Shown here in pieces: positions 18,125 to 18,257 of a stretch of DNA of 64,000 nt; the first letter of the stretch is position 1, and the number at the start of each line of letters is the position of its first letter. The notes under the pieces are model-generated. The model made no database searches. It had not been told where the DNA came from and saw nothing but the letters and a program-made list of their open reading frames with translations. The stretch is from Parachlamydiales bacterium (GTDB lineage: Bacteria; Chlamydiota; Chlamydiia; Chlamydiales; JAJFMK01), in the NCBI GenBank assembly GCA_963704365.1, contig OY969899.1, positions 872,421-936,420 on the forward strand, written 5' to 3'. Made by a program: the position numbers and the translations under genes.

Positions 18125-18160
18125 AAAAATTCCTTCATTAAAAAAAGATAGTCATAAACA

Positions 18161-18170
18161 CCCCCCCCCC
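18161..18170 (-). repeat. G10 homopolymer (C10 on + strand) 37-46 nt upstream of the giant gene ATG
   Basis: Read directly from the sequence. On the coding strand: ...TGTTTAAAAT-G10-TGTTTATGACTATC...GAAGGAATTTTTATG. Confidence 0.9.
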
Positions 18171-18257
18171 ATTTTAAACAATTATTTTTCGTTCAGAAAT
18201 TTTGCAAGCTACCTAAACGTACCAAACGTGAAAATTCCTCCCCTAAAGAGGGCAGTT

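Follow-up and report, generated by a model that had tools for sequence, protein, structure and literature searches.

The window analysed here, a stretch of 64,000 nt from a Parachlamydiales bacterium with a G+C content of 43%, carries a giant open reading frame (ORF) that is preceded on its coding strand by a run of ten guanines. Its TypA shares 94% identity with the TypA of a Microflora Danica Parachlamydiales MAG, against 67-83% with those of other Chlamydiota. The relevant features of the window, together with the locus of a paralogous giant gene, are the following:

11640..11695, copy A of direct repeat R (56 nt, exact), the left boundary of the cassette
11699..12319, minus strand, gene of 206 aa, always paired with the giant gene
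12377..18124, minus strand, giant ORF of 1915 aa with a P-loop, a Gly-rich middle, a hydrophobic segment and, at the C-terminus, a Ulp1-like cysteine protease
18161..18170, minus strand, G10 homopolymer (C10 on the plus strand), at -46..-37 counted from the A of the start codon
18257..18312, copy B of direct repeat R (56 nt, exact), which precedes the ATG by 133-188 nt, the right boundary of the cassette
18331..18495, plus strand, ORF of 54 aa, what remains of the N-terminus of a paralogue of the 384-aa gene (21394..22548)
18799..18812, plus strand, G14 homopolymer, intergenic, 19 nt outside the inverted repeat of the insertion sequence (IS)
18832..20356 (to about 20382), minus strand, IS with 23-nt inverted repeats at 18832-18854 and 20334-20356
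19040..20305, minus strand, transposase of the IS (HTH_23, rve_3)
26169..26177, G9 run inside a Fic-domain-like ORF (25013..26503, minus strand), encoding AKGGGAP in frame
L085 4212..10624, locus of the paralogous giant gene (1911 aa), ERZ25039480 contig_18258, about 1.7 Mb away from the locus in the window

The P-loop motif of the giant protein reads GRTGAGKS, and the protein displays a weak, below-threshold match to a GTPase family. For its C-terminus, a Ulp1-like protease of solved structure gives a match (7fiu_A, E=2.3e-7) in which the conserved HWVTL and CGI motifs line up, and the catalytic His and Cys of the protease domain are presumed to lie within these two motifs. The start codon is backed by the conserved N-termini of the homologues and the paralogue (MA[IV]ST.RP.PG). 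Only three homologues are found among 5.8 billion proteins, and a profile search with the giant protein returned no relative among GTDB contigs represented by one genome per species. The giant protein may constitute a novel effector family. The paralogue has its own partner of 207 aa, and its neighbours are a MoxR/VWA operon and an RHS/YD-repeat protein; the two giant genes share 72% nucleotide identity across the first 1.9 kb of the gene. The association of the giant gene with a small downstream partner is found not only in the window but also at the paralogous locus and at the locus of the orthologue L002.

In the window, the two genes and the 132 nt upstream of the giant gene form a cassette of 6.6 kb (11696..18256) bounded by the two copies of R. 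In an Illumina contig (L092, SRR34865000) the flanks are joined via a single copy of R and the cassette is absent. Cassette-bearing Illumina contigs stop exactly 30 nt into R (L092 and L094-L097 compared), as expected from a branch at that point in a k=31 assembly graph. This looks like a presence/absence polymorphism of the cassette among otherwise identical strains. Elsewhere in the window and at the paralogous locus, neither the IS nor repeat R had another copy.

Upstream of the cassette lie, in this order, a decayed gene remnant, G14 and the IS. The 54-aa ORF displays 36.5% identity over 52 aa to the 384-aa gene (E=3e-6), and a short ORF ending at 18727 resembles, by eye, the C-terminus of the same gene; the region 18331..18727 looks like a decayed duplicate of the 384-aa gene. 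For the IS, with its inverted repeats TCACCGATAGARATTTCC, no target-site duplication is visible. The element has additional subterminal repeats of the GGAAAT(C/T)T type, and two G/C-rich hairpins (about 18905..18935 and 18962..19005) are located downstream of its transposase gene. Given the cassette, the gene remnant, G14 and the IS, the G10 tract is therefore situated in an accessory, rearrangement-prone region adjoining a gene that resembles an effector.

The G10 tract and its length across assemblies

The sequence surrounding the tract, read from the window on the minus strand, is TGTTTAAAAT-G10-TGTTTATGACTATCTTTTTTTAATGAAGGAATTTTTATG, letter for letter the context that the original prediction had placed upstream of the giant gene. 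The gap between G10 and the ATG (18124..18122) is 36 nt. In 100 dinucleotide-preserving shuffles, words of at least ten Gs are expected 0.08 times per window (sd 0.27), and the observed count was reached in none of the 100; across 290 kb of other Chlamydiota DNA, no G or C run of at least 10 nt was found. The strain of the window is also present in the ENA assembly ERZ25039480 (2.6-Mb contig), and a slightly different strain, whose giant gene carries about six substitutions, is present in ERZ25039528 (50-kb contig). Both G10 and G14 were recovered in these two further assemblies, so both tracts are real sequence.

The length of G10 is ten in the window, in ERZ25039480 contig_18258 and in ERZ25039528 contig_20490, and no difference between strains or assemblies was detected among these three Nanopore consensus sequences. 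With ten nucleotides the tract reaches the length at which homopolymers become hypermutable (about 8-9 nt or more) and is intrinsically slippage-prone. By analogy with Treponema pallidum tprL, in which one length predominates and 7-11 Gs occur together within one isolate (PMC7864442), equal consensus lengths in three assemblies would be compatible with switching. Consensus sequence from Nanopore R10.4 is reportedly dependable at homopolymers of less than 11 nt, with problems setting in at 10 nt (PMC9262707), and the length of G10 is thus at the edge of this range. JGI metagenome contigs scanned for the G10 flanks with a variable gap gave no match, and the De Bruijn (Illumina) contigs end at a 35-nt stretch common to the paralogue and at the 56-nt repeat.

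The second tract that had been predicted, G14, is present as well, 629 nt from G10, and is not obviously tied to any gene. Its length is 14, 16 and 13 in the three Nanopore assemblies (L001 and L084 among the loci), but cannot be trusted, because Nanopore calls are unreliable at homopolymers longer than 10 (PMC9262707). An Illumina contig (L100) ends 2 nt before the tract. The spread may thus reflect a heterogeneous homopolymer or merely one that is hard to sequence, and the two are inseparable here. The in-frame G9 run is identical in the three assemblies, one such sequence also coming from a short-read (Logan) assembly.

Several other peculiarities of the window were observed. CAGCTG is often read as CAGaCTG (8015, 11511/11517, 22249, about 26497 and other sites). 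False frameshifts caused by this misreading, as shown by the other assemblies and the Illumina data, are apparent in infB (5648..8056 / 8007..8483), which elsewhere encodes an IF-2 of 944 aa, at the start of the Fic-like gene and in a 421-aa ORF (10461..11726). Directly upstream of the Fic-like gene lies a 23-nt tandem repeat of 4.8 copies (26526..26635; consensus GTTTACTCGAATTTCGTGCAACA).

Upstream conservation and candidate promoters

In an ungapped alignment anchored at the ATG, 37 of the 75 nt upstream of the giant gene are identical to the paralogue, which was matched by 4 of 20000 shuffles. The stretch -75..-1 is the sole upstream region conserved between the two copies, identity falling to background beyond -100. 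Because conservation is confined to this stretch, the functional 5' elements of both the giant gene and its paralogue are probably located within about 75 nt of the ATG, as far as the alignment indicates. Register 0 is also the best one on the far side of the tract: G10 aligns with GGTGGCATTT of the paralogue, which is of equal length and leaves the spacing unchanged, and a TTG just upstream of G10, at -66..-64, is conserved. Poly-G itself is absent upstream of the paralogue and of the orthologues L002 and L003 (51% and 43% identity), the two metagenomic sequences that make up the interspecies comparison. At the homologous position the paralogue has a terminator-like hairpin, TGCCGAAAAAGGTGGCA followed by T7, which is not conserved in the window copy and was discarded as a candidate element.

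The following elements can be discerned around the tract:

18176..18181, minus strand, alternative -35 hexamer TTGTTT, whose TTG recurs in the paralogue (TTGCCG) at an equal distance from the ATG
18173..18178, minus strand, -35-like TTTAAA of the original prediction, 4/6 consensus positions, not above chance
18151..18156, minus strand, -10-like TATGAC of the original prediction, 26 nt before the ATG, without the conserved final T
18131..18136, minus strand, Shine-Dalgarno-like GAAGGA, 6 nt before the ATG, AAGGAA/AGGAAA being kept in the paralogue

TTTAAA and TATGAC are, as had been proposed, 16 nt apart with the entire G10 between them. The pair does not rise above chance: with a rough sigma-70 matrix built from Escherichia coli frequencies, TTTAAA-16-TATGAC scores 4.8 bits (4.79), ranks 9th among the candidates in the 576 nt upstream, and is equalled by about 9 sites per kb inside the coding sequence of the giant gene itself. 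A consensus promoter scan did not call this pair, and no sigma-70/sigma-66 hexamer pair with 16-18 nt spacing flanking G10 is better than background. TATGAC and TTTATG are both poor -10 elements. Moreover, the spacer between the two hexamers is about 70% G, which is atypical compared to the A/T-rich spacers (12% C + 17% G) of verified Chlamydia trachomatis sigma-66 promoters (PMC2743672). In verified chlamydial sigma-66 promoters the -35 hexamer usually opens with TTG and a spacer of 17 nt is the commonest (PMC2743672). The promoter around G10 is putative. Since the 36 nt to the ATG leave no room for a promoter, G10 must be part of either the core promoter or the transcribed leader.

Other roles for the upstream region were considered. 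A sigma-54 promoter (TGGTAC...TTGC, about 18205..18227, located by eye) has the wrong GG-to-GC spacing. A frameshift or upstream-ORF switch was likewise rejected: an ATG abutting G10 opens only ORFs of 6-22 codons at tract lengths from G8 to G13, and at none of these lengths is the giant ORF extended across the tract. The leader matched no Rfam family with an E-value below 0.1, and its fold is no more stable than that of shuffled sequence (z = 0.01).

A possible tunable promoter spacer and its rivals

In the mechanism that we favour, a sigma-66 (sigma-70-type) promoter would have its -35 element at TTGTTT (18181..18176) or at the overlapping TTTAAA and its -10 element within the T/A-rich TTTATGAC block (18158..18151). 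The resulting leader would be about 20 nt long and bear the GAAGGA ribosome-binding site, and G10 would occupy most of the promoter spacer. Gain or loss of a G during replication would change the length of the spacer and rotate the hexamers relative to each other, which in turn would move transcription up or down, as in porA, tp0126 and C. trachomatis lpxC. A length of 10 would be the 'on' setting, because it reproduces the spacing of the tract-less paralogue. We infer all three components, namely, promoter position, slippage and expression effect. The upstream sequence suggests, with somewhat less than an even chance, that G10 is embedded in the core promoter region of the giant gene, and we are equally tentative about an effect of tract length on transcription initiation. 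That variation in tract length occurs and is used in natural populations seems unlikely.

Placement of the tract in the spacer is consistent with its being real, far above chance and present in three assemblies, with the conserved TTG at -66..-64 and the preserved spacing relative to the paralogue, and with the fact that no promoter fits wholly between the tract and the ATG. Precedents are known within the phylum. Furthermore, the giant gene is accessory, effector-like, rare and present or absent among near-identical strains; accessory effector-like genes are the usual carriers of homopolymer tracts. On the other hand, the candidate hexamer pairs are all at chance level, and the A/T-rich spacers of verified C. 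trachomatis sigma-66 promoters (PMC2743672) offer no parallel to a G-rich one. The length of 10 in all three assemblies, including that of the slightly diverged strain, and the lack of the tract in the paralogue and the two orthologues also speak against it, as does the location in a decay zone comprising the IS, pseudogene remnants and the cassette junction. Finally, long G runs in this genome need not be regulatory, since G14 has no gene and the in-frame G9 is stable.

The main rival explanation holds that the promoter lies further upstream and that G10 is a passenger in the 5' UTR, a neutral slippage expansion with little or no effect on expression, which we regard as possible rather than probable. 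Indeed, upstream hexamer pairs score as well or better by the same rough sigma-70 matrix (6.65 and 5.71 bits vs 4.79), the candidates being TTTCTG-17-TAAAAT, with a -10 element that abuts G10, and TTGCAA-15-AATAAT; their -35 elements, however, are weak, or 15 nt separate the hexamers. In the TAAAAT candidate the spacer is A/T-rich and 17 nt long, resembling those of verified chlamydial promoters, and TAAAAT serves as the -10 element in some verified chlamydial promoters (PMC2743672), but it is not conserved, the paralogue having GAAAAA instead. Verified C. trachomatis promoters are located 62-107 nt from the start codon, beyond the position assumed in the original prediction (PMC2743672). Copy B of the repeat is an alternative promoter site: it duplicates the sequence that, in the allele lacking the cassette, is found 47-102 nt before the neighbouring 377-aa gene, and may hold a promoter, because that of the 377-aa gene would be expected there. 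The lack of length variation among assemblies and the existence of G14, a long G run without a gene to control, likewise suit a neutral tract. A run of ten Gs, however, should decay unless something maintains it or it arose recently, and the leader has no significant RNA structure that would explain the conservation of this region.

Very unlikely, in our estimate, is a sequencing artefact, in which the tract is real but its length and the variation of G14 are Nanopore consensus errors, so that no conclusion on spacer length could be drawn. Nearly all differences between assemblies are indels of a single base that cluster at CAGCTG, a pattern that we take to be Nanopore consensus error at a methylated motif, and the window contains spurious frameshifts compared to Illumina contigs. 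R10.4 consensus is reliable only for homopolymers below 11 nt (PMC9262707), and G14 was called with three different lengths. Nevertheless, G10 was called as 10 in all three assemblies, the low-quality one included, a length of ten falls just at the limit of what is reliable, and over the stretches that they share with the window the Illumina contigs match it at 100%.

Likewise very unlikely is transcription starting inside the G run from TAAAAT (18176..18171) as the -10 element, with reiterative transcription tuned by GTP level or tract length: TAAAAT matches 5/6 of the -10 consensus and directly abuts the tract, so that initiation 6-8 nt downstream would fall within it, but the idea is purely positional, the -35 element TTTCTG is weak and not conserved in the paralogue, and we know of no precedent in Chlamydiota. 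The start of T. pallidum tprL is the fourth nucleotide after its poly-G (PMC7864442), so poly-G directly at promoters and start sites is known.

Overall, G10 is a plausible candidate for a new instance of the known homopolymer promoter switch. If the tract tunes transcription, homopolymer contingency regulation would reach from Chlamydiaceae (pmp genes, CT166, lpxC) to environmental Parachlamydiales, and the rare giant GTPase/Ulp1-protease protein would be a host-interaction factor under fluctuating selection; the presence or absence of its gene among otherwise identical strains points to the same kind of selection. A poly-G promoter rheostat combined with recombination between the 56-nt repeats that removes the entire gene would place two stochastic layers of control on the effector. 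Such a combination appears decidedly unlikely, but if true it would be the first contingency locus described outside Chlamydiaceae and would imply that an uncultured endosymbiont hedges its bets against a variety of protist hosts. For now, G10 is one more candidate for a mechanism that is well understood, found in a metagenome assembly built from Nanopore data only, with homopolymer lengths at the limit of reliability.

Comparison with known homopolymer-controlled genes

The mechanism is textbook and has precedents in Chlamydiaceae, whereas its occurrence in environmental chlamydiae and in this protein family would be new. In Neisseria meningitidis, as summarized in PMC7864442, poly-G lies in the gap that separates the -35 element of porA from its -10 element and poly-C over the -35 element of opc, and tract length sets the spacing of the hexamers and thereby the level of transcription. 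The arrangement described here is similar in that a G/C homopolymer of about 10 nt is found in a core promoter, albeit a putative one, and porA and opc are genes for host-interaction proteins. In Neisseria, however, the promoter is mapped, tract lengths vary among isolates and expression follows length; moreover, the hexamers around G10 are much weaker than those of Neisseria.

In T. pallidum, poly-G lies between the -35 and -10 elements of tp0126, where a spacing of 17 nt is optimal, and shortly before the transcription start in tprE/G/J/L (PMC7864442). As in the window, the gene that poly-G (7-11 nt in T. pallidum) directly precedes belongs to an uncultivable or host-dependent bacterium. Unlike here, length variation is documented by fragment analysis and its effect by reporter fusions, and the tracts are common to the subspecies, whereas G10 is absent from the paralogue and the orthologues.

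Closer relatives provide two further cases. The pmpG family and the CT166 cytotoxin of Chlamydia have poly-G tracts of 8-19 nt in virulence or effector genes (PMC6740158, PMC4514472), and CT166 resembles the present locus in that poly-G is linked to a large effector or effector-like gene (PMC6740158, PMC4514472). These tracts are inside the reading frame and act by frameshifting, whereas G10 is upstream of the ORF; lying 36 nt before the conserved start and outside any frame of the giant gene, it does not belong to the pmpG/CT166 type. The promoter of C. trachomatis CT533/lpxC has a poly(A) tract, in keeping with the A/T-rich chlamydial spacer, rather than the poly-G found here, and heterogeneity is documented at the level of reads (87% A12, 9% A11) together with a shift during passage, whereas G10 is known from consensus lengths alone. 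Nevertheless, lpxC belongs to the same phylum, and the tract is located 36 bp from the start codon in both cases (PMC7864442, PMC4514472).
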